Below are positions 1,715-35,614 of a stretch of 64,000 nucleotides of DNA, piece after piece. Location of the stretch: contig CAZDKH010000010.1 in assembly GCA_964506225.1 (NCBI GenBank), forward strand, positions 23,019-87,018, written 5' to 3'. The translations under genes were made by a program, and so were the position numbers. Origin of the DNA: an uncultured Gammaproteobacteria bacterium. GTDB lineage: Bacteria; Patescibacteriota; Microgenomatia; UBA8517. A model generated the notes under the pieces. The model searched no databases. It was not told where the DNA came from and saw only the letters and a list, made by a program, of their open reading frames with translations. Every line of letters starts with the position of its first letter. Positions within the stretch are counted from its first letter, which is position 1.

Positions 1715-4700
1715 ATATGTTCATGAGAAAATTTTTTTTAAATAAAAACCCCATTGTCCTGCTTTTAGTTGTTTCAACTCTTCTGTCTCTTTTTTGGTTT
1801 AGAAACGGCAATATCATGGGGGTGGGGGAAAGTGGGTTGATTTTTTATGATTTCTCAAGAGTTCTTGATTTAGTGAGATTTAGCTGGGCTGAGTTTTGTC
1901 TAGGGAATGTTGTCGGTATAGTAACTGCGTCTGCGCCAACCTTTTGGTTTCTTTTGCAACTTCAAAATATAAAAATTCCAAATTTTCTTATACAAGCTCT
2001 ATTTATCAATTTTTCCTTTTTTATTTCTGGTTTGGGAGTTTACCTTTTGGTTGGCGAGCTTTTCCCAAACCTCAGTAAAAAATCCAGATTATTGTCTGCC
2101 TTTTTTTATCTTTTTAATCCTATTTCTTTAGTTAATGTTTGGACGAGATTTTTGTATAACTACATGTTTTTTATGGCCCTTTTACCCATCGCACTTTTTT
2201 TATTTTTGAAAGGTATTAGTTCTAAAGACTACCGCTTTGCGATATTAACTTCTTTGGCAACAGTATTTTTTTCATATTCCCTAACTTCCACGGTTTTTAA
2301 TTTTTTGCTTTGGTTTGTTTTGATTTTGGCGTTTTGTTTTTCTTTCTTTTGCGACAAAAAGGATTTCTTTTTTTATATAAAATATTTTTTTCTTACTTTG
2401 TTTAGTTTTCTTTTTTTTAATTCCTGGTGGTTGGGACAACTTTTGAGCTTTTTGTATTCAAGCGGGTATAAAGTGGCAGTGATGGAATTTTTCACTCAGG
2501 CAGGAAATATAGGAACACTAGTTACCTTAAGTGGTATTCTTGGTAAATTAAGCGAAATCTTTAGGTTTTCCCATAAAACTTTTTTCTCCAAGGGACCTTG
2601 GTGGGCAAAAATTTATAACCTTCCACCGATTGTTTTTTTGGAGTTTTTAATTTCCGGAATTGTCTTTTGGACGATTTTTAAATACAAGAGGATAAGAAAT
2701 ATTCTTTTTTGTGGAATTTTATTTCTACTGGCTGCTTTTTTGATGAAAGGTAGTGAGCCTCCATTGGGCTATATATTTCAACTTGCTTTTGAAAAACTTA
2801 GCATCCTTCAGGTTTTTAGAAATCCTTTTGAAAAATTTGGTTTCCTGTTTTCTTTGGCTTCGTCTTTAATTTTTGCTTTTGGAATAGAGAAAATTACACT
2901 TCTTTTAAAGAATCGAATTTACAAAAAGTTTGTTCTTTTCACCGCACTTTTTACAGTCTTGGTGGTCTGGGGTTTTCCATTTTTAACCGGCCTTGTTTTC
3001 ACTAGTAACGAGGGAACAAGTGATGATAAATTGGCTGATTACGAAGTTAAAGTTCCTTCTTATTATAAAGATGCTAATAACTGGCTTACAGAGGAAAACC
3101 CCGAATTTCGTTTTGTTTCCCTTCCAATTGATGGGGAGCCCATAAATTATTCTTGGGAAAAGCCTTATCGGGGGGTGGAGTTATCAACTACTTTATTTAA
3201 AAATCCAAACATATCTTTGAATACTTCTATCCCTTATTACAATAAGGTCGTAAGTGAGTTGGATTGGATTTTTCTAAATAATCATAATTTTGAGGAAGTT
3301 TTGAATGTTTTGGATGCAAGATATGTGATTAATAGGTTTGATATAGATTGGAAGAGACGTGGCATGAGAAATCCTGTTGTTGTTGAGGAACTTCTTAAGT
3401 CACAGGAAAATTTTGTCAAAGTTGCCTCTTTTGGAAAACTTGATTTTTGGAAGAGTAATTTAATAAACCCTTATGGAAAATTTTATGCAACACAAAAATT
3501 GGTAGAAAGCATTCCTTATCCCGCAATTTCAGATTTGGGATTTTATGAATTGAATTCAAAAGTCACCTTATACTCAGGGAGTAATCTAAAAGCGAATGAA
3601 AAAATTATTCACCCCTCGAGAAGATTTTATTTGGAATATCCTCCGGCAACTTTTTTTGAAGAAAGACAGGACATTTTTCCCCACGTGCGTTTTTTGCCTT
3701 CTTCGCCTTTTTACCCTTTTGTGTTGCTCAAAGAAAAAATTGAAAAACTTTTCATCAACGATAGTACTGAGCTTTCTGAGTGGATTTTAACTATTCTGGG
3801 CAAAAGACTCAACGAATTCAGACAGTCAGTTCAAAAAAAGAATTTTAAAGCTGCAGCACTTGCATTAAATCGCTATAGCAAGGAGCTTCAGGAATTTGGA
3901 ATTTTACAAAAGAAAGCTGGTTTAGTAAATGAAAGTTCAGATTATTCAGACAATTGGCTGCAGGAAAAAAATTATGGTCTTTTTGCAAGACACTTGGGTG
4001 TTTTATCCGAGGATTATCAGCTTGTTGGCACTAACGATTTATTGGAAAAAGTAAATACTACGAAAAGTTTACTCAAAGAAACACTCGTAGAATTGGGTAT
4101 TTCGCCAAAATTTGACTATATAGACAATGAGTCAATGCCAGTTGCCGGTAGAAAAACTTTCCAAGTTAGTGTGCCGGAAGACGGGGATTATGAATTGTTA
4201 ATTGATATGAAAAACTGGGATAAGTTTTATGAGATAGAAGGATTTGAAATACAGTTTCAAATTGACAATCAAGTGCTTTCTAAAGCTGGAAATGTTGGCA
4301 AAAATGGTATAGTTTCTTTTGGTAAGTTTAATTTTAGTAAGGGAGTTCATGAGATTGGCTTTAATACCCCCAAGCAGAAAAATTTGATTGATGCCCCAAC
4401 GGAATTTTCGATGGTCTCAAGCCAGGGAATTCAGGAAAAAGCATTTGAACTAAAAAATTTTGACCCTTACTCAGCCTATCAAATTAGTTTTGATTATCTG
4501 ATTAAAAAGGGTTCGGGAATCAAGATTTATTTTGAAGCTGATAATGACCGAGTTGTTGATGGCGAGGTTAAATACAGCTTCAGTAAATTTTTTGGTCCCG
4601 ATGAAAAAAACTACGATTTTGATTATAAGAAATATGTTTTAAACCTTACCCCCAATAGCGGGGCCACGAGTGCTAGAATTGGAGTGAGCGTGACTCCTTG

Positions 4701-5223
4701 GAATGACTGTTTTAGTATCTACAAAGGCTTATTTAGTTATGTTTGCAGAAACGAGTCTTTTAAACACAAGTACGATAAGACAACCGAAGTTGTTGTTAAA
4801 AACCTTAAAGTGCAAAAAGTACCCAATCCCAGATTATTTTTGCATTATTTAACAGACAAAACCAACACCAACATAAACGGAGAGCTTCCGATTATAACTT
4901 ACGACAAAATCAATTCAACCTTATATAAAGTCAAGGTTACCTCTTCCCGGGAGAAATACTATCTAATATTTTCCGAGCTTTTTAATTCTGGTTGGCAGGT
5001 TGAATTTCCTGACGGCCAAATCCTCTCCGAGGATAAACATTTTTTAGCAAACGGCTTTGCCAATGGATGGGAAATTGACCTTAAAGGTGATTATGAACTT
5101 CTGGTAAAATACGCGCCGCAGGATTTTCTGGAAAAAGGGAGTATTATCTCACTAATCTCTATTTTAGGAGGTATAGCTGTTTTGATTTATCAAACCCTTA
5201 TAAGAAGACATGCGAGTAATTAA
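1711..5223 (+). CDS. Giant polytopic membrane protein, GT-C-type glycosyltransferase-like (AftD/YfhO-like architecture)
   Basis: 1170-aa ORF. The N-terminal third is highly hydrophobic with many predicted helices and an early acidic loop, 'GESGLIFYDFSRVL'. A long soluble region follows, then a single C-terminal helix ('IISLISILGGIAVLIY') and a basic tail. The family was assigned from recall of the architecture, not from a search. Confidence 0.6.
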   Translation: MNMFMRKFFLNKNPIVLLLVVSTLLSLFWFRNGNIMGVGESGLIFYDFSRVLDLVRFSWAEFCLGNVVGIVTASAPTFWFLLQLQNIKIPNFLIQALFINFSFFISGLGVYLLVGELFPNLSKKSRLLSAFFYLFNPISLVNVWTRFLYNYMFFMALLPIALFLFLKGISSKDYRFAILTSLATVFFSYSLTSTVFNFLLWFVLILAFCFSFFCDKKDFFFYIKYFFLTLFSFLFFNSWWLGQLLSFLYSSGYKVAVMEFFTQAGNIGTLVTLSGILGKLSEIFRFSHKTFFSKGPWWAKIYNLPPIVFLEFLISGIVFWTIFKYKRIRNILFCGILFLLAAFLMKGSEPPLGYIFQLAFEKLSILQVFRNPFEKFGFLFSLASSLIFAFGIEKITLLLKNRIYKKFVLFTALFTVLVVWGFPFLTGLVFTSNEGTSDDKLADYEVKVPSYYKDANNWLTEENPEFRFVSLPIDGEPINYSWEKPYRGVELSTTLFKNPNISLNTSIPYYNKVVSELDWIFLNNHNFEEVLNVLDARYVINRFDIDWKRRGMRNPVVVEELLKSQENFVKVASFGKLDFWKSNLINPYGKFYATQKLVESIPYPAISDLGFYELNSKVTLYSGSNLKANEKIIHPSRRFYLEYPPATFFEERQDIFPHVRFLPSSPFYPFVLLKEKIEKLFINDSTELSEWILTILGKRLNEFRQSVQKKNFKAAALALNRYSKELQEFGILQKKAGLVNESSDYSDNWLQEKNYGLFARHLGVLSEDYQLVGTNDLLEKVNTTKSLLKETLVELGISPKFDYIDNESMPVAGRKTFQVSVPEDGDYELLIDMKNWDKFYEIEGFEIQFQIDNQVLSKAGNVGKNGIVSFGKFNFSKGVHEIGFNTPKQKNLIDAPTEFSMVSSQGIQEKAFELKNFDPYSAYQISFDYLIKKGSGIKIYFEADNDRVVDGEVKYSFSKFFGPDEKNYDFDYKKYVLNLTPNSGATSARIGVSVTPWNDCFSIYKGLFSYVCRNESFKHKYDKTTEVVVKNLKVQKVPNPRLFLHYLTDKTNTNINGELPIITYDKINSTLYKVKVTSSREKYYLIFSELFNSGWQVEFPDGQILSEDKHFLANGFANGWEIDLKGDYELLVKYAPQDFLEKGSIISLISILGGIAVLIYQTLIRRHASN

Positions 5224-5723: not shown

Positions 5724-8460
5724 GCTTCTTTTGATATTAGTACTTATTATTGTTTTTGGCCGGCTTTTTTTGCCGGGACCAAGGGCGGCCGGAGATTTCC
5801 CTTTTAGTTCTTCAGAGACGGTTAGGGAAGGATTTAATATACCTCAAGTTTGGTCGTCAAGAGGTAATGGTATGGGCAGATACGTTCTTTCTACTCTTTG
5901 GGCTTGGCCGGTTGATTTTTTATATGGAATGGGAGCTTTTTTGGGTTTAGATTTTTCTGTCCTTGAACGAATAATAGGCATTTTTCCGGTTCTTGTCTTT
6001 GGCATTTTTGGAATTTCAAGATTACTAAGACGCTTGGGGGTTTCTGGTATAGGAAAGATGGCTTCAATATTGGTGTATGTGGCTAATTCATATCTTATTT
6101 TACTTATAGATGGAGGACAACTTTCTGTCGCCATGGCCTATGCTTTTCTGCCATTGACTTTTTTGACTTTTGAGGATTCGCTTGAGGGAAACTTAAGAAA
6201 AAAAATTCTTGCAGGTCTTGCGGTATCTATTCTTGGATTTTTCGATTTAAGATTTGTCTTTGTTTTTTTATTGATTCTTCTTTTGAAATTTGTATATGAA
6301 TTATTATTTTTGCATTCCAGAGAATGGCCACACTTCTTACTAAGTTGGTTTAGAAGTGGTTTGGTTATCCTTCTTGTTATGGTTGGACTACATAGTTTCT
6401 GGATTTTTTCGTCTTTTTTGGCTAAACCTCCTCAATTGCCGGCAGGTTATCTTCGCAAAGAACAAACCCAGTTTTTGAATTTTGCAAACATTGGACATGC
6501 GACACTTTTATTGCAGCCCCACTGGTTTAAAAACGTCTTTGGCAAGGTTACTCATTTAAAAGCCGATTTTTTTCTTATACCTTTATTGGTTTTTTTAGCA
6601 CCCATTCTCAGAAAGAGGGATAAAACACTTGGTTTTTGGTTATTTGTTTTACTGGTTGGTATTTTTTTAGTCAAGGGTTCAAACCCTCCACTGTCAGAAA
6701 TTTATGCTTGGCTTTTTACTAACATAGCTGGATTTTCTTTTTTTCGTGACTCGACTAAATTCTTTGTTTTAATTGCGCTATCATATTCTGTTCTTGTTGG
6801 GATTGCGGTAAACGAGTTGAACAAGAAGATTGCTTGGTTAGCAAGGTTTTTGCCTTTGGGGATTTTTTTGTACTTTGTAATTATTATGCGACCGGTGTGG
6901 TTGGGGAAGATGACCGGGATGTTTTCTTTACCGGTTTATCAAAAAGAATTTTCATTTTTAGAAAACGTTTTAAAATCCGATGAGAATTGGGGCAGAGTAC
7001 TTTGGATTCCTACCAGATTTCCAATGGGATATTCTTCTTTACAACACACTGCTCTCTCGGCAACTGATTTAACAGAAATTCGGCCATTTATTACAGGAAA
7101 CGTTGGCACGTATGAGATATTTAATTTTATTCGCGAATCCAAATTTGTAAGTCAGCTTTTTGATGTTGCCGGGATTTCTTATGTTGTTTATCCTTATCCT
7201 GACGAAAGAAGAGAAGATTTAAACGAGGACGAAAGAGAGTATTATCAAATCTTTTTGAATCAATTGGTAAGTTTGGATTGGCTTAGCGTCATTAAAAATG
7301 AGAGCAAAGTTCCGATATTAAAAACCCTGAAACACCAAAATCATATTTTTGTGGCTCCGAAATTTTGGTGGGTAGTTGGTTCTGACCGAATTTATTCTGA
7401 TTTGGTATCAATAAAAGATTTTGATTTATCCAAAAACGCCATTATCTTTTTGGAAGAAAATACAGATCTTTTTGGTAAATTTATTAAATATCCAAACTCA
7501 AAAGTTATTTTATACGATAAAAATACAATTGATTTGGCAGTAAGCTCTTTGGACTCTGAAGACCTGATTTTCCCAGCTAAAAACTTGACCCTATCTCCTA
7601 ATGATAGTGGCTGGTGGAAAAGAGAAGCTTCGGATTTTCTCAGTTGGCGATTTTTTTTGCAGGAGAAATATGGTGTTGATAATCTTGACTTTGATTTATC
7701 GGGCGGATGGGCAGTCGGAGAAGGAAATTTAAGCCTAAAAATTAAGAATGCGAAGTTGAAAAAAGGAACTTTGTTATTAGCCAGAGTAATGGAAAGTTCA
7801 AAGGGGGGAGTTATTCGATTTTATCAAGATTCAAAACTGATAGGTGAAGTTAATACTTTACTAACTGCTCCTAAGAAAATTGAAATCAAACTTACAGGTT
7901 ATCAGGACGTCCCCGACAAATATTTTATTTATGACGAGGCAAATATCAGATGGTTTGAGATAGGCAAACTGGAAAGTAGCGGTGAAATTACAATTGAAGT
8001 TAGTGGAGGTATAAATGTTCTTAATGCCCTTGTTGGTATTGAAGAGCAAAGATGGGAACTTCTTAAAAGGAATGTTCAAGATCTTGTTACAAACGCTAAG
8101 GCTTTATTTTGGAGCGACCTTTCTGATAACGAGAAAATTAGTCTATTTACAATAAAAGAAATCCCTGAAGTTGAGTACCTAAGGAAAAACCCCACCGAAT
8201 ACTGGGTAAAAGTTAAAGGACTCAAAGAGCCATCATTTCTGATTTTATCTGAACAATATGATAAATTCTGGCAAATGAATGAAGTTTCATCTCTCCCAGC
8301 TTATAGCTTTTTAAATGCTTTCATGGTGGAAAAAGATGGCTTTTATAAAATTTATTATTCTCCCCAAAAGTATGTTCTACCAGGTCTTGTTATCAGTGGT
8401 TTTTCATTGATACTTGCTAGTGCTATATTAGTAAAGCTTCACAATAAAAAACGGGTATAA
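5710..8460 (+). CDS. Giant polytopic membrane protein, GT-C-type glycosyltransferase-like (second copy of the architecture)
   Basis: 916-aa ORF with the same layout as 1711..5223. It has a hydrophobic N-terminal half with an early 'AAGDFPF' loop, a soluble C-terminal half, and a terminal helix ('LVISGFSLILASAILV') with a basic tail. Confidence 0.55.
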   Translation: MKKNRLLLILVLIIVFGRLFLPGPRAAGDFPFSSSETVREGFNIPQVWSSRGNGMGRYVLSTLWAWPVDFLYGMGAFLGLDFSVLERIIGIFPVLVFGIFGISRLLRRLGVSGIGKMASILVYVANSYLILLIDGGQLSVAMAYAFLPLTFLTFEDSLEGNLRKKILAGLAVSILGFFDLRFVFVFLLILLLKFVYELLFLHSREWPHFLLSWFRSGLVILLVMVGLHSFWIFSSFLAKPPQLPAGYLRKEQTQFLNFANIGHATLLLQPHWFKNVFGKVTHLKADFFLIPLLVFLAPILRKRDKTLGFWLFVLLVGIFLVKGSNPPLSEIYAWLFTNIAGFSFFRDSTKFFVLIALSYSVLVGIAVNELNKKIAWLARFLPLGIFLYFVIIMRPVWLGKMTGMFSLPVYQKEFSFLENVLKSDENWGRVLWIPTRFPMGYSSLQHTALSATDLTEIRPFITGNVGTYEIFNFIRESKFVSQLFDVAGISYVVYPYPDERREDLNEDEREYYQIFLNQLVSLDWLSVIKNESKVPILKTLKHQNHIFVAPKFWWVVGSDRIYSDLVSIKDFDLSKNAIIFLEENTDLFGKFIKYPNSKVILYDKNTIDLAVSSLDSEDLIFPAKNLTLSPNDSGWWKREASDFLSWRFFLQEKYGVDNLDFDLSGGWAVGEGNLSLKIKNAKLKKGTLLLARVMESSKGGVIRFYQDSKLIGEVNTLLTAPKKIEIKLTGYQDVPDKYFIYDEANIRWFEIGKLESSGEITIEVSGGINVLNALVGIEEQRWELLKRNVQDLVTNAKALFWSDLSDNEKISLFTIKEIPEVEYLRKNPTEYWVKVKGLKEPSFLILSEQYDKFWQMNEVSSLPAYSFLNAFMVEKDGFYKIYYSPQKYVLPGLVISGFSLILASAILVKLHNKKRV

Positions 8461-30839: not shown

Positions 30840-32156
30840 ATGAGTTTAATGGATGAAATTGTCTCCTTGGCAAAGCGCAGGGGATTTATCTTTCAGGGGA
30901 GCGAGATTTATGGGGGGTTGGCTGGATTTTGGGATTATGGCCCCCTTGGGGTTGAGCTTAAAAAGAATATCAAAAATGAGTGGTGGAAATCTATGGTCTA
31001 TGAAAGAGAGGATGTGGTTGGAATAGATGCCGCGATTATCATGAATCCCAGAGTTTGGGAGGTTTCAGGGCATACAGAGTCTTTTTCCGACCCCCTGATA
31101 GAGTGTAAGCTTTGCCATAAACGCTTCAGACCCGATAAACCAGAAAGTGTCAAAGAGCACGAAGATCAACACTTAAAAAACAAGGAAAAGGTTTCTTGGA
31201 CTAAGCCCAAGAAATTTAATCTTTTAACAGAGGTTTTTCTGGGAACAACCGAGCCCAAACAAAAAGCTTATCTGCGGGGTGAGATTACCCAAGGAGTATT
31301 TGTGAATTTTAAAAATATTCTTGATTCAACACATATGCGTATTCCTTTTGGGGTTGCCCAGATAGGAAAGGCTTTCCGCAACGAAATCACCCCGGGAAAT
31401 TTTACCTTTAGAAGCAGAGAATTCGAGCAGATGGAGCTTGAATATTTTGTCAGGCCTGAAGAGAAGGAAGGCAAGAAAACTTTTGAATACTGGAAGAATG
31501 AGCGTATAAACTGGTATGTTAATCTGGGTATACGCCGAGAAAAGTTAAGACTCAGAGAACATACTCCAGAGGAAAGGGCTCATTACGCAAGAAGCGCTGA
31601 AGATATTCAGTATGAATCTCCTTTTGGTTGGGATGAGTTTGAAGGAATTCACCACAGAGGAGACTGGGATTTGGGACGTCATCAACTAAAATACAAGGAT
31701 CCTGACTCCGGTAAAGAATATACACCCTGGGTGATTGAGACATCCGGGGGGGTGGATAGAGCGGCTTTATTTTTCCTAATTGACGCCTATTGTAAGGATA
31801 ACGGCCGGGTTGTATTAAAACTAAATCCCCGTCTTGCTCCCTATAAACTGGCTGTTTTCCCACTTTTGGCAAACAAACCCAGTCTGGTTAACAAAGCAAG
31901 AAGCATATTTGAAAAATTGCGGGGGAAGTACCCTATCTCGTGGGATGACAGGGGAAATATTGGAAAAAGGTATTTTGCTCAGGATGAGATTGGTACCCCA
32001 TGGTGTTTGACTGTTGATTTTCAGACACTTAAGGATAATACTGTTACTTTAAGGGATAGAGACACGACCAAACAAGAAAGAGTTGACATCTCTAAATTGG
32101 AAGGCTGGCTTGAGAGTAAATACAAATGCCAGAAAAAGAAAGCAGACAAAGTTTAG
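30840..32156 (+). CDS. glyQS: Glycine--tRNA ligase (dimeric class II, GlyQS type)
   Basis: 'RRGFIFQGSEIYGGLAGFWDYGPLGVELKKNIKNEWW', 'FRNEITPGNFTFRSREFEQMELEYF' (motif 2) and 'GGVDRAALF' (motif 3 region). Confidence 0.95.
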   Translation: MSLMDEIVSLAKRRGFIFQGSEIYGGLAGFWDYGPLGVELKKNIKNEWWKSMVYEREDVVGIDAAIIMNPRVWEVSGHTESFSDPLIECKLCHKRFRPDKPESVKEHEDQHLKNKEKVSWTKPKKFNLLTEVFLGTTEPKQKAYLRGEITQGVFVNFKNILDSTHMRIPFGVAQIGKAFRNEITPGNFTFRSREFEQMELEYFVRPEEKEGKKTFEYWKNERINWYVNLGIRREKLRLREHTPEERAHYARSAEDIQYESPFGWDEFEGIHHRGDWDLGRHQLKYKDPDSGKEYTPWVIETSGGVDRAALFFLIDAYCKDNGRVVLKLNPRLAPYKLAVFPLLANKPSLVNKARSIFEKLRGKYPISWDDRGNIGKRYFAQDEIGTPWCLTVDFQTLKDNTVTLRDRDTTKQERVDISKLEGWLESKYKCQKKKADKV

Positions 32157-32389
32157 AAGAGAAAGACTGTGATGAGTTTAAGAAATGGGGGTTTTACGTT
32201 TACATTCAAGGTCATGAAACAGGAGGAGGACACATCACAATGAAATTCCATGCAATCGAAATAGATCCTAATACTTCTTTCCCATTTGATGGTATGGATT
32301 CGGGAACGCTTCATCTTGTTGCAGATAGTCTTGATGAATTAATAGAAAAGATAGATGATTTTCGTCGACGAAAACCCAAGAAAGGTTGA
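32126..32389 (+). CDS. Hypothetical small protein (start uncertain: 32126 or 32240)
   Basis: The ORF overlaps the end of glyQS by 31 nt. The internal ATG 32240 is preceded by GGAGGAGGA (32222-32230), the strongest SD-like element I saw in the window, and would give a 49-aa product. Confidence 0.35.
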   Translation: MPEKESRQSLEEKDCDEFKKWGFYVYIQGHETGGGHITMKFHAIEIDPNTSFPFDGMDSGTLHLVADSLDELIEKIDDFRRRKPKKG

Positions 32390-32441: not shown

Positions 32442-33194
32442 ATGAAGAAATTATTTCCCATTTTTCTTCTCGGCGCAGGGGTAGTTTTTTTGATTGTTAC
32501 TTTTGTCGTCATCAGTGGAAAAGACAAAAATGGGCAGGGGGTTGAGATAGAAGAAAAGATAGCCGATATACCCCTTGAGCAAAGGCCATTTACAAGTCTA
32601 ACCCCAAGCGAAGATGGTCACTGGTTGAAATTAAGGATTGAGGAGCCACAAAAAGTAACTGGGGCCAAAAGCCTTGATTATGAAATTTTGTACAAAGTAG
32701 CAGACGGCAGGGTTCAGGGGGTTCCGGGTACAGTTTCTTTCAAGGGTGAAAAGATAATTGAGCGGGATATCCTATTGGGGTCTGAGTCCTCAGGTAAATT
32801 TCGCTACGACGAAGGAGTTAGAGAGGGAACTTTGACACTTCGCTTTAGAAACGAGAAAGGTAAGTTGGTTGGGAAGCTTTCAACTGATTTTCATTTGCAG
32901 GTTGAGGATGAAATCTTAACAAGTTTGGATAAGGAGTTTTCTTATAAACTTGATAAGGCAGTCAAGAAAGTGTTTTTTGTAACAATGAAAACTTTTGGCG
33001 TGCCGGGAAAATTTGAAGGCATTTTTTCAAAAGGTCCTTATGGGGTTTTTTCTTCCAGCAAGGGCAAAGTTGCCGGAAAAGTTGAAAAGATTGACAGCGT
33101 TTATTGGTGGAGTGGAAGTGAATGGAGGATGTTAGAAGAAGGTAATGCTTCTGATGTGGGGGTATTCGTAGGGACTTCTGATATAACAGAGTAA
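32442..33194 (+). CDS. Hypothetical membrane-anchored/secreted protein
   Basis: 250 aa with an N-terminal hydrophobic helix ('LFPIFLLGAGVVFLIVTFVVI') and a beta-rich-looking body. The C-terminal 14 aa are duplicated at 34067-34111. Confidence 0.55.
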   Translation: MKKLFPIFLLGAGVVFLIVTFVVISGKDKNGQGVEIEEKIADIPLEQRPFTSLTPSEDGHWLKLRIEEPQKVTGAKSLDYEILYKVADGRVQGVPGTVSFKGEKIIERDILLGSESSGKFRYDEGVREGTLTLRFRNEKGKLVGKLSTDFHLQVEDEILTSLDKEFSYKLDKAVKKVFFVTMKTFGVPGKFEGIFSKGPYGVFSSSKGKVAGKVEKIDSVYWWSGSEWRMLEEGNASDVGVFVGTSDITE

Positions 33195-33457
33195 TGGACC
33201 GAAAGAGTCTGGTGCGAAATTTGGTCAAGGAAAAGCCCTACCTTTCTTGGTATACAAAGGCAGATGACTTAAGTTACGAAAGTGTTTTGGAGAGTGTGCT
33301 AAACTACGGTAGCTGGGAAGATTATATTCATCTAGAGAAAATTTTAGGAATAGAAGAAGTAAGGGCGCTTTTTGAAAAGATAACTAGTAAAAAGAGAGTC
33401 AATCTAAGGCCGCAGACAGTGGAGTATTACAGAAAGTATTTCCAAAAATATACATGA
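33194..33457 (+). CDS. Small hypothetical protein, probable partner of the downstream AbiEii-like gene
   Basis: 87-aa ORF. Its ATG overlaps the upstream TAA (TAATG), and its stop sits beside the start region of the nucleotidyltransferase remnant. It resembles small proteins I recall finding upstream of AbiEii-type genes, but this is unverified. Confidence 0.45.
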   Translation: MDRKSLVRNLVKEKPYLSWYTKADDLSYESVLESVLNYGSWEDYIHLEKILGIEEVRALFEKITSKKRVNLRPQTVEYYRKYFQKYT

Positions 33458-34059
33458 GGAGATACTTACAAGGCAACAGAAAACACTTCTTCCTTTATTA
33501 AAGGAGTTCTCAAATGACTTTGGTTTGGTTGGTGGCACGGCCCTTGCTCTCCAGATTGGTCACAGAAGGTCTGTTGATTTTGGCCTTTTTACTCTTAGAA
33601 GTTTTGATATCGAGAGGATTAGAAATACTGTTAGACAAAAATTTGCTATTCAGGAAACGTTGGTTGAAAATCCCAATGAGCTTACGCTTGCTATTAACAA
33701 CGTCAAGCTTACATTTTACAAATATCCTTATACTATGGGTTTTCAAAAAGCTTAAACAAGGTTATTAAAATGCCTGATATTTTGACGCTTGCTGCGATGA
33801 AAGCTTTTGCTCTAGGAAGAAGGGTAAGTGGAAGGACTATGTAGATCTTTACTACGTTTTTAAAATCTATAGCCTAAAGGACATAGTGACGAAAGCAATA
33901 GGAATTTTCAAAGAAGAGTTTAATGAGAAGCTTTTGAGGGAACAACTTTCCTGTTTTACCGATATTGATTATTCAGAAAAGATTGACTATCTAAAGGGCT
34001 TTGAGGTAAGGGATGAAGAAATAAAAAGAAAATTGACCGAAATTAGCCTTTCAAGATAG
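33456..34059 (+). pseudogene. Decayed nucleotidyltransferase AbiEii/AbiGii toxin-family gene
   Basis: Three reading-frame pieces join into one family-like protein. Piece 1 is '..LTRQQKTLLPLLKEFSNDFGLVGGTALALQIGHRRSVDFGLFT...YKYPYTMGFQKA' followed by a stop. After a frame change, piece 2 is 'MPDILTLAAMKAFALGRR'. After another frame change, piece 3 is 'KWKDYVDLYYVFKIYSLKDIV...ISLSR' followed by a stop. There is no in-frame ATG at the 5' end. Confidence 0.65.
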
Positions 34060-34060
34060 C

Positions 34061-34111
34061 AGGTCTTCAGATGTGGGAGTGTTTGTTGGTATTTATAAGG
34101 GAAGTGAGTAA
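34061..34111 (+). pseudogene. Orphan duplicated 3' end of the 32442..33194 gene
   Basis: Reads RSSDVGVFVGIYKGSE followed by a stop, against ..NASDVGVFVGTSDITE and a stop at 33144-33194. The length to the stop is the same, and the SDVGVFVG core is 18/24 nt identical. Confidence 0.55.
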
Positions 34112-34132: not shown

Positions 34133-35614
34133 TTATTGGAATTTTTTGCCTAGGTTAGATAATAGCGAGGCCGCAATGTCAACATCAGTGACCAGAGTTG
34201 TTCCGCTTTCGATTGCGGCTTGACGGATAAGTTTCCCATCGCTTATTTCTTTATCATCGCGTTTAGGATTTGTGGGAATATTTATAATAAGATCAAACAT
34301 ATTTTTTTGTAGAAGATCCCTTAGGTTTGGTTGTCCATTTTCGCTTATTTTATAAACTCTGGTTGAGGGTATTCCGTGCTTTTGTAAAAAGAGATTTGTG
34401 TTTTGGGTCGCGTAAAGAATATGGCTGTTACTTCTTAATTTTTTAAGGCTGGGTAAAAGTTTGGCCTTGTTTTCGTCTTTACCTATTGAAAGTAATATTG
34501 TTTTCTTGTGGTCAAGGATTGGTTGCATGCCGCGTTTGGCTACATCCCAATCTTTGGTTTGTCTATTCATTAAACAAAAAAGAGAGCATTGTCTAATATC
34601 ATCCATACCCAAGATAAACTGCATAACCCTTTCATTACCTATCCCATATCCTGCGTGAGGTAAGGTTTTTTGAGCCACTATAATATCTTCGGTATACCAC
34701 TGAAAATCTTCATATTTTCCACCACGTTGCTCGTGCATTTTATACATCTTAGATGTCAAAAACCTCACAATTAGTTTTACCCCATCGTGCTCGCGGACAG
34801 CAGAGCCGACTCCCTCTCCACTGAAAGGAAATATACAATCAGCCGAAAGAACCACCCTGGGGTCTTTCGTTGAGACTTTCATATTGAAGAATTTGATTTC
34901 TTTTGGATATTTCATAATAAAAACTGGAGAGAATTCTGCAGTGTTTTTTCCGTAACCTCTTGTTTTTTTGTTGAGAAGCTCAACTATCTTGGCTTCATGC
35001 TCGGATATTAAATCATCTCCAAATTGTAGTTCAGGCCAACCATTCTTTTGTAAAAGCAAGACAGCTTCTTCGTAGGAAATCCGCAAATATGGCCTTGCCA
35101 TAATCTCCTTAAGAAGAGCAGGATCTCTTTTGTAATCTGATTTGAGAATTTTACTATTGTTTTCTAGAACTGAATTTATCATCGCTTTTGTGGCTAGTTC
35201 AATATGGGCAAGAAGTGTTTCGAACATCTTTTCTTCGTCGTATGTATCTTTAGTCATCTTTGCCATTGTACAGTCAAACTCTTCCTCTGTTAATCTAAAT
35301 TGTCGAAGATGTCTTTTGTCCTCTGTCTCCTCATCGCGACCACTAAAAATTATCGTGTAGACACCGTGAGCGTATTGCAAAACTTGTTCGAGGGCAAGCT
35401 GACCTGTTTGAGTGAAGAAAAGAGGTAAATTAAGTCGGTTGCCTATTTTGAAAAGAGTGTCCACATTTTCGCAAGCTCCAGTTATACCAACAATTGCTGG
35501 TACTTCTGCGTATTGTAAACCAAGTGAACGATAATGGGCAATAGAGCCATAAAACATCGCAGAGCTGAAATTCACCAAGTTCTGAAAATGTTTATTATTA
35601 TCTTTGAGTGACAT
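34133..35614 (-). CDS. Class II aaRS-like catalytic core (AsnRS/AspRS/AsnA-type, no anticodon-binding domain) fused to a C-terminal MGS-like domain
   Basis: The motif-1-like sequence is 'YAEVPAIVGITGACENVDTLF'. The motif-2-like sequence is 'FSGRDEETEDKRHLRQFRLTEEEF', which aligns residue for residue with AsnRS '[21 protein letters not shown]'. The motif-3-like sequence is 'GYGIGNERVMQFILGMDDIRQCSLF'. The last ~120 aa ('KKTILLSIGKDENK..YATQNTNLFLQKHGIP..FDLIINIP..IRQAAIESGTTLVTDVDIA') resemble the MGS-like fold of the CPSase allosteric domain. Confidence 0.7.
   Translation of the reverse strand: MSLKDNNKHFQNLVNFSSAMFYGSIAHYRSLGLQYAEVPAIVGITGACENVDTLFKIGNRLNLPLFFTQTGQLALEQVLQYAHGVYTIIFSGRDEETEDKRHLRQFRLTEEEFDCTMAKMTKDTYDEEKMFETLLAHIELATKAMINSVLENNSKILKSDYKRDPALLKEIMARPYLRISYEEAVLLLQKNGWPELQFGDDLISEHEAKIVELLNKKTRGYGKNTAEFSPVFIMKYPKEIKFFNMKVSTKDPRVVLSADCIFPFSGEGVGSAVREHDGVKLIVRFLTSKMYKMHEQRGGKYEDFQWYTEDIIVAQKTLPHAGYGIGNERVMQFILGMDDIRQCSLFCLMNRQTKDWDVAKRGMQPILDHKKTILLSIGKDENKAKLLPSLKKLRSNSHILYATQNTNLFLQKHGIPSTRVYKISENGQPNLRDLLQKNMFDLIINIPTNPKRDDKEISDGKLIRQAAIESGTTLVTDVDIAASLLSNLGKKFQ

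Follow-up and report, generated by a model that had tools for sequence, protein, structure and literature searches.

A decayed toxin-antitoxin cassette bracketed by two copies of its target at the 3' end of a conserved gene in a genome judged to belong to the Candidate Phyla Radiation

Insertion with long target duplication has reportedly been described for restriction-modification gene units by Nobusato et al. in 2000. Restriction-modification units inserted in this way have been seen in bacteria such as Helicobacter, Haemophilus and Neisseria, most of them naturally competent; their repeats and the 3' end of an adjoining gene frequently overlap, as in 46-bp examples from Haemophilus influenzae, and gene fusion at the insertion junctions has been seen as well (Furuta et al. 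2010; PMC2853133). Mruk & Kobayashi (2014; PMC3874152) give further precedent. Here we describe an insert in a stretch of 64,000 nt (contig CAZDKH010000010.1, positions 23,019 to 87,018), which we call the window and whose own numbering is used for all coordinates below. The insert is 0.88 kb long and holds two genes, an intact antitoxin-like open reading frame (ORF) and an AbiEii-type toxin pseudogene; it lies at the 3' end of a host gene, here termed gene X, and is bracketed by what read as two copies of its target. Judged by the source names of gene X homologs, the window comes from a Woesebacteria-type genome of the Candidate Phyla Radiation (CPR/Patescibacteria). We favour, at a probability of about 0.68, the reading that a selfish two-gene cassette inserted into the last codons of gene X with a target duplication of about 30 nt, that no recombinase took part, and that two alleles of gene X contributed to the history of the locus.

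Gene X (32442..33194, + strand) encodes a protein of 250 aa with an N-terminal membrane anchor, which is conserved in Woesebacteria/Microgenomates and matches no Pfam or NCBIfam family. The protein ends in SDVGVFVGTSDITE followed by a stop (the same tail, in excerpts of other lengths, is NASDVGVFVGTSDITE and EEGNASDVGVFVGTSDITE), and the usual C-terminus among its 1057 homologs is ...SSDIGIFIGTSE, again followed by a stop. At an offset of 917 nt from this tail, an orphan frame (frame 3, 34061-34111) reads ...SDVGVFVGIYKGSE, or RSSDVGVFVGIYKGSE, up to a stop. Its final part, the orphan peptide SSDVGVFVGIYKGSE (34067-34111, stop included), begins 7 bases past the toxin stop (34057-34059), in the third frame. 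An earlier sequence-only reading of the window had pointed out a duplicated tail with the same length to the stop, and the sequence reads as it described: the SDVGVFVG core is identical at 18 of 24 nt in the two tails, all six differences are synonymous third-position changes, and the distance from core to stop is equal. In a repeat search, the top direct repeat of the region is 33148-33194/34065-34111 (47 nt, 70%). The kilobase downstream was resampled 20,000 times under a first-order Markov model, and an exact eight-residue match to the last 25 residues of gene X never appeared; the longest chance match was 6 residues, reached three times, and none was of 7 or more. A chance origin of the tail match is excluded. 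A hidden Markov model (HMM) of the gene X family, built without the window protein, aligns the orphan peptide to its C-terminal end (positions 229-243 of 244); among all 3352 peptides from a six-frame translation of the window this match ranks third, with E 0.78. No tRNA and no Rfam family were found at the window repeat.

Gene X was compared with 81 other loci, 80 from a scan of species-representative genomes plus one further locus, L003. The cassette is absent from all 81, and 80 have a single gene X tail; the exception, L088, has a second tail around a different insert. The gene mraZ is found in 80 of the 81, where it starts at a median of about 159 nt past the gene X stop and, for 65 of these loci, within 254 nt; the window separates the two genes by 2646 nt. 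Since gene X stands cassette-free and closely before mraZ elsewhere, the arrangement in the window is an insertion, and the ancestral order is glyS - gene X - mraZ, broken in the window by the cassette and a convergent gene of 493 aa. The relatives of gene X at these cassette-free loci are only 42-72% identical to it. Both the 81 loci and the mraZ spacing bear out the earlier proposal that a toxin-antitoxin cassette inserted at the 3' end of a host gene, and it is the cassette-free state, not the state with two tails, that is ancestral in these loci.

The first gene of the insert is the antitoxin-like ORF (33194..33457, + strand; 87 aa, intact), whose ATG overlaps the stop of gene X as TAATG with a shared A; this coupling at 33194 had also been noticed before. 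The protein gives a weak match to DUF6922 (Pfam PF21956) at E 0.007 and 16.3 bits, which is under the Pfam cut-off of 27, and 17 of 32 antitoxin relatives match the same family at E ≤ 0.01, the best at 4e-5. Its AlphaFold model (predicted local distance difference test score, pLDDT, 89.7) is all-helical, with six helices, and no solved structural relative was found for it despite the confident model. The second gene is an AbiEii/DUF1814-type nucleotidyltransferase toxin pseudogene (33450..34059, + strand), which is read in three frames and closes with a stop at 34057-34059, the normal end for the family; tblastn correspondingly gives three pieces in three frames. When spliced at two points, the reconstructed toxin aligns without gaps, end to end, with intact relatives of 202 aa (full-length identity of 54-61% to the L004 and L007 proteins), and the frame-corrected sequence matches Pfam PF08843 with 35.8 bits (cut-off 22.5; E 1.1e-8).

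Four small lesions are seen in the toxin gene. Its start is ATA (33450-33452), as against ATG in the relatives, and the same G to A change turns the usual C-terminal Ala of the antitoxin into Thr. In the catalytic motif, DFD has become DFG by a GGC in place of the second Asp codon (33582-33584; SVDFG versus SIDFD of the relatives). The other two are 1-nt deletions, one within the GGG/TTTT run at 33737-33743 and one at 33824-33825. The sequence-only reading had the gene broken by one in-frame stop and two frame changes and without an ATG; the frame changes and the missing ATG hold, and the start, the deletions and the DFG agree with its view of the toxin as decayed, but the two deletions explain every stop seen and no independent in-frame stop is left. 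The toxin is thus a pseudogene of the PF08843 family that has lost its frame and its catalytic S-x-D-x-D motif, and as a selfish cassette in decay the element is nothing out of the ordinary. L001 and L002, two more assemblies of the window's population, both carry the insert. The second of these (JGI 3300010284) differs from the window at only 2 bases in 4.6 kb (34038 and 34054); both fall in the last 22 nt of the toxin pseudogene, beside the right junction, and neither alters a residue read in the toxin frame.

The cassette resembles AbiE type IV toxin-antitoxin and abortive-infection systems and DUF1814 (MenT-type) toxins in that its toxin matches PF08843 and comes behind a small partner gene whose stop overlaps the toxin start, and the intact relatives of the window toxin carry the GG...S-x-D-x-D nucleotidyltransferase motif of DUF1814 toxins. 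The partner, however, is an all-helical DUF6922-like protein of 86-91 aa, whereas AbiEi is a winged-helix regulator with a C-terminal domain, and the cassette is therefore not a canonical AbiE type IV pair. The leaderless promoter in the cassette and the decayed state of the window toxin are two further differences.

This promoter places the left end of the cassette. An extended -10 box, TGaTATAAC (33179..33187, + strand), stands 6 nt before the antitoxin ATG in a leaderless layout, at a point where gene X reads (S)-D-I-T; the last codons of gene X, tct gat ata aca gag taa, are at the same time cTGaTATAAC, agagta and the beginning of the ATG. Among 63 non-redundant sister cassettes, 49 have a match to TATAAT of at least 5/6 located 4-9 nt before the antitoxin ATG, 37 of these at exactly 6 nt and 32 with a TGn extension; a 5/6 match in this geometry occurs in only 3 of the 81 other gene X tails. 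In L008, the cassette nearest to that of the window (66% identity between the toxins), GATATAATCAGAGT stands where the window has GATATAACAGAGT. The window hexamer ends in C, where a final T is near-invariant in the family, and this C may be one more lesion. Because of this last base, a simple promoter scan of the window omits the box.

With the family's -10 box at its 6-nt spacing inside the gene X tail, the left end of the cassette therefore reaches about 33174-33180, and three consequences follow. The duplicated target is about 33148-33179/34065-34096. Its left copy (33148..33179, + strand; codons S-D-V-G-V-F-V-G-T-S) lies within gene X and is identical at 24 of 32 nt to the right copy at the offset of 917, with a boundary uncertain by about 6 nt; the right copy (34065..34096, + strand; S-D-V-G-V-F-V-G-I-Y) is orphaned and fits the C-terminal positions of the family HMM. 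Second, the final D-I-T-E and stop of gene X are supplied by the insert, and its last five codons (S-D-I-T-E) and stop are the cassette's own extended -10 promoter and spacer. Third, the segment at 34097..34111 (+ strand; K-G-S-E and a stop) is the displaced end of a gene X allele. It has the S-E-stop ending of most family members, and comparable family tails are ...GVFVGLKQGS (P0091) and ...GVFVGIK (P0026). The cassette as a unit thus spans from the leaderless-type promoter to the toxin stop. With the end of gene X being cassette promoter, it is coincidence that both tails contain 'gag taa', and largely so that they run for the same length to the stop. The sequence-only reading held that the insert had brought a diverged replacement tail of its own; the two tail copies are indeed diverged, but the end now worn by gene X is promoter.

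The cassette family is common in CPR metagenomes. A toxin search of JGI metagenomes confirmed at least 531 loci, of which 80 were kept. The partner gene lies directly upstream of the toxin in 85 of 87 toxin-bearing loci. Three of the 87 repeat the window; leaving those aside, every pair has both genes intact. Parcubacteria, Giovannonibacteria for instance, are among the hosts, so that the family spans CPR classes; no relative of the toxin was found in the viral contigs searched. Direct repeats bracket 11 of 43 non-redundant sister cassettes with enough flank, compared with 1 of 177 control windows that were shifted by 1.4-2.6 kb and put through the same test (Fisher 5e-8), which points to the flanking bracket as a trait of the family. 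The sister repeats are 18-124 nt long, 86-100% identical and different in sequence at each locus. The start of their right copy varies from 4 nt ahead of the toxin stop to 155 nt behind it, mostly lying within about 50 nt, and their left copy usually ends 17-130 nt ahead of the antitoxin ATG, with distances of up to about 315 nt in L051 and L071. At L043 and L077, just as in the window, an upstream gene provides the left copy with its 3' end and its stop; other repeats are intergenic, one is promoter-bearing (L078) and one contains a terminator-like hairpin (L071). By eye, no common motif or microhomology was found at the repeat boundaries of the sister loci.

These loci bear on the view, put forward in the sequence-only reading, that the insert is a site-specific island that targets gene 3' ends. 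Such an islet would have carried an attP-like gene 3' end, and a tyrosine or serine recombinase, since lost or acting in trans, would have left attL and attR behind. The window does share with tyrosine-recombinase islands the target end duplicated on both sides, as direct repeats at the flanks of the insert, and a host gene that stays open, and the synonymous differences between the copies are also in keeping with this. The cassette family, however, has no recombinase, no conserved core and no target specificity: the sister repeats are unrelated and lie in coding, intergenic, promoter and terminator DNA alike, the longest identical run between the two window copies is 8 nt, and the end restored to gene X is partly promoter where the islet calls for a homologous tail. 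No recombinase was found within about 6 kb in the window, where the neighbours are RecO, GlyRS, the AsnRS-like gene, MraZ and RsmH, and no recombinase, integrase or transposase among the genes directly beside 9 sister loci with repeats, where housekeeping or unrelated genes such as GAPDH, a radical-SAM enzyme, an epimerase, a histidine kinase and RecA are found, which extends the earlier remark that none is visible. No tRNA is involved, and none overlaps any repeat. We therefore think an islet of this type quite unlikely.

One sister locus carries a small array. In L071 (1170-3866), three toxin-antitoxin pairs (RHH+PemK-like, HicB/HicA-like and DUF6922+AbiEii) are separated by four copies of a 60-124-nt repeat, in which a hairpin accompanies a TGTTACAAT promoter; in addition, 177 nt of the HicB-like gene occur there as a partial duplicate. 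Chromosomal integrons often contain toxin-antitoxin cassettes, and this array of hairpin-bearing repeats is what would be expected if the cassettes were integron-like gene cassettes with attC-type recombination sites as repeats. Against this, the repeats are unrelated between loci, most are without palindromic structure (by eye, only the L071 repeat has a hairpin), some are conserved coding sequence, and no integron integrase was present in any flank examined. An integron origin is in our judgement very improbable.

Further loci are of interest for the fate of such inserts. For L043 an empty site was sought by way of its histidine-kinase neighbour, and no empty allele was found: all contigs with the exact histidine-kinase protein carry the cassette, and a relative at 82% has another downstream region. 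At the orthologous locus of L174, where the histidine kinase is 79% identical, 3790-3996 is an internally deleted remnant of the same cassette (compared with L043 3669-4618), with the last third of the toxin directly behind the promoter; the L043 insert is thus old and vertically inherited. The L043 repeat copies are still identical at 30 of 31 positions despite the age of the insert. A contig from the L043 population, L172, ends at 4832, exactly at the histidine-kinase stop and hence at the left junction of the cassette, which could reflect strain heterogeneity there. In L004 (195-436), an orphan 3' fragment of a LamG-type gene (...DDVRVYNYALSLDQIEKVYNGG... to a stop) precedes the closest relative of the window antitoxin; the rest of that gene is missing, and the stop of the fragment abuts the -10 box of the cassette.

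The exception among the 81 gene X loci, L088, has an insert of its own in the gene tail. Its gene X is 58% identical, and the insert of 1874 nt carries a family-2 glycosyltransferase (GT2), an FNR-like oxidoreductase and a ferredoxin. The 3' end of gene X is repeated on both sides (84 nt at 100%, or 91 nt at 98%; copies 4137-4227 and 6011-6101). Here the left copy runs into the insert (...GIFVICKNF and a stop), and the right copy keeps a native, family-like tail (...GIFISTAEQEQVEP and a stop). As unrelated cargo has the same bracket, the mode of insertion is not tied to toxin-antitoxin genes. The same few codons of gene X have been struck twice independently, and a hotspot or mere tolerance of the site are both conceivable. 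L088 also enters into the possibility that the cassette took the place of most of a second gene X in tandem, with the orphan tail of the window as its remnant. The tail does fit the C-terminal motif of the family, but gene X is single at all the other loci save L088, whose second tail is an insertion bracket; only the last 11-17 codons are present in the window, and the bracket pattern of the family accounts for the tail with no paralog. We give a tandem copy hardly any credence.

The differences between the two window copies carry information on their origin. Across the eight codons of the core, the copies disagree at 6 of 8 third positions but agree at all 16 first and second positions. Neutral drift of the orphan copy to synonymous saturation would be expected to bring about six first- or second-position changes, and the probability of zero is estimated at about 6e-4 with equal neutral rates; a cassette with four small lesions does not look old enough for that drift. 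The few sister repeats in real coding frames have 10 synonymous versus 5 non-synonymous differences. These counts weigh on a simpler version of target duplication, in which the copies were identical at insertion and all differences arose later in place, with no transfer of alleles. It is the plainest way to read such a duplication, sister copies are still 86-100% identical, and the decayed toxin indicates that the insert is not new. The skew of the differences towards third positions speaks against it, as do the orphan frame, which is still open to a stop, and the small number of lesions in the cassette; we hold divergence in place to be rather unlikely. The synonymous-only core differences suggest instead that the two copies come from two functional alleles.

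The sequence of events that we favour, a recombinase-free insertion followed by allele exchange, would be as follows. A cassette made of a leaderless promoter, a DUF6922-like antitoxin and an AbiEii/DUF1814-type toxin enters the last codons of gene X, most likely as DNA taken up from outside the cell, and without the use of any element-encoded or neighbouring recombinase. Joining would occur by illegitimate or homology-facilitated recombination, or by repair synthesis, with the target copied on both sides. The left copy stays in gene X, which then reads through the -10 box to the TAA that overlaps the antitoxin ATG, and the right copy is stranded behind the toxin together with the original last codons (...IYKGSE and a stop). 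The duplication would have arisen once in some lineage, and the bracketed cassette would later have moved to a related genome by recombination in the flanking gene, with one crossover in gene X and the other close to the right end of the cassette, leaving two copies that are different functional alleles. Such transfer between genomes would explain why the core differences are synonymous only. Afterwards the toxin would have been lost to its four small lesions and the antitoxin ORF kept; an orphan antitoxin is probably harmless and may protect against related toxins.

Several points weigh against this scenario. The window repeat is short and 75% identical, and its nucleotide score of 25 is below the 99th percentile of the null (29); as the repeat by itself is not significant at the nucleotide level, the case rests on the protein-level match together with the pattern in the family and its context. 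No repeat is detectable at 32 of the 43 sister cassettes. No same-species empty site was found for the window, and the closest relative of gene X is 72% identical and has a different downstream region (pyrimidine genes). The tail of gene X (T1) is like this closest relative at the amino-acid level, and the orphan tail (T2) is like it at synonymous sites; a similarity profile of gene X against its closest relative shows no drop towards the 3' end. By this profile and by the comparison with L003, either copy may be the resident one. Finally, the biochemical mechanism of long duplications is not known, the restriction-modification precedent included.

Two genes near gene X in the window are also of note. 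The convergent gene (34133-35614, - strand), which fills the spacer between gene X and mraZ along with the cassette, is absent from all 81 loci. Its 493-aa protein has an AsnRS/AsnA-like class II core (PF00152), scoring far under the NCBIfam asnS cut-offs, and a C-terminal MGS-like domain (PF02142). Only a handful of representatives in a library of 1.84 billion proteins cover both domains, and most relatives are about 330-360 aa long and consist of the core only. On the other side of gene X, the 286 nt that separate it from glyS are filled by an 87-aa ORF without a family match (32126-32389, + strand). As the two genes are directly adjacent in L003 and L088, this ORF may be another small insert.

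The pattern in the window matches insertion with long target duplication. Such insertions were recognised by Furuta et al. (2010) from units shorter than 20 kb and free of mobility genes, repeats of more than 30 bp, and an empty site in a related genome. Here we find two genes in 0.88 kb, with no mobility gene; a repeat of about 32 nt at 75%, or 47 nt at 70%, in the window (18-124 nt at the sister loci and 84-91 nt in L088); and cassette-free gene X loci in relatives of 42-72% identity. Like restriction-modification units, the window cassette is a small selfish 'addiction' unit that lacks a mobility gene, and the sister cassettes have repeats of their target that vary in length, are unique to the locus and sometimes are gene 3' ends. 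It differs from them in its toxin-antitoxin cargo, in its CPR hosts and in having no same-species empty site, and many of the cassette repeats, which range over 18-124 nt, are under the 30-bp threshold. In addition, the double-strand break made by a restriction enzyme, the common property invoked by Furuta et al., has no obvious counterpart in a nucleotidyltransferase toxin. We found no report in the literature of such insertion for classical toxin-antitoxin pairs or for CPR bacteria, although this is not proof of absence.

The genomes of CPR bacteria are tiny and tightly packed, with few recognisable mobile elements, and the present cassette family offers dozens of natural insertions with readable junctions. 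It indicates that new genes can enter CPR gene ends and spacers with a long target duplication of variable length and no integrase, a signature that has been left unexplained for restriction-modification genes since 2000. As a tentative and distinctly doubtful generalisation, CPR genomes might take up cassettes by a general, recombinase-free insertion that copies 20-120 nt of the target; the toxin-antitoxin family of about 0.9 kb would spread in this way, repeated hits would build arrays such as that of L071 with no integron, and metabolic cargo could enter likewise, as in L088. If the pattern is general, it would provide a marker of recent gene gain in metagenome-assembled genomes and a tractable data set on mechanism. 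There is a lesson for annotation as well, in that the end of a conserved gene can be replaced, unnoticed, by codons from an insert. The part worth following is the bracket found across the family, rather than the single locus.

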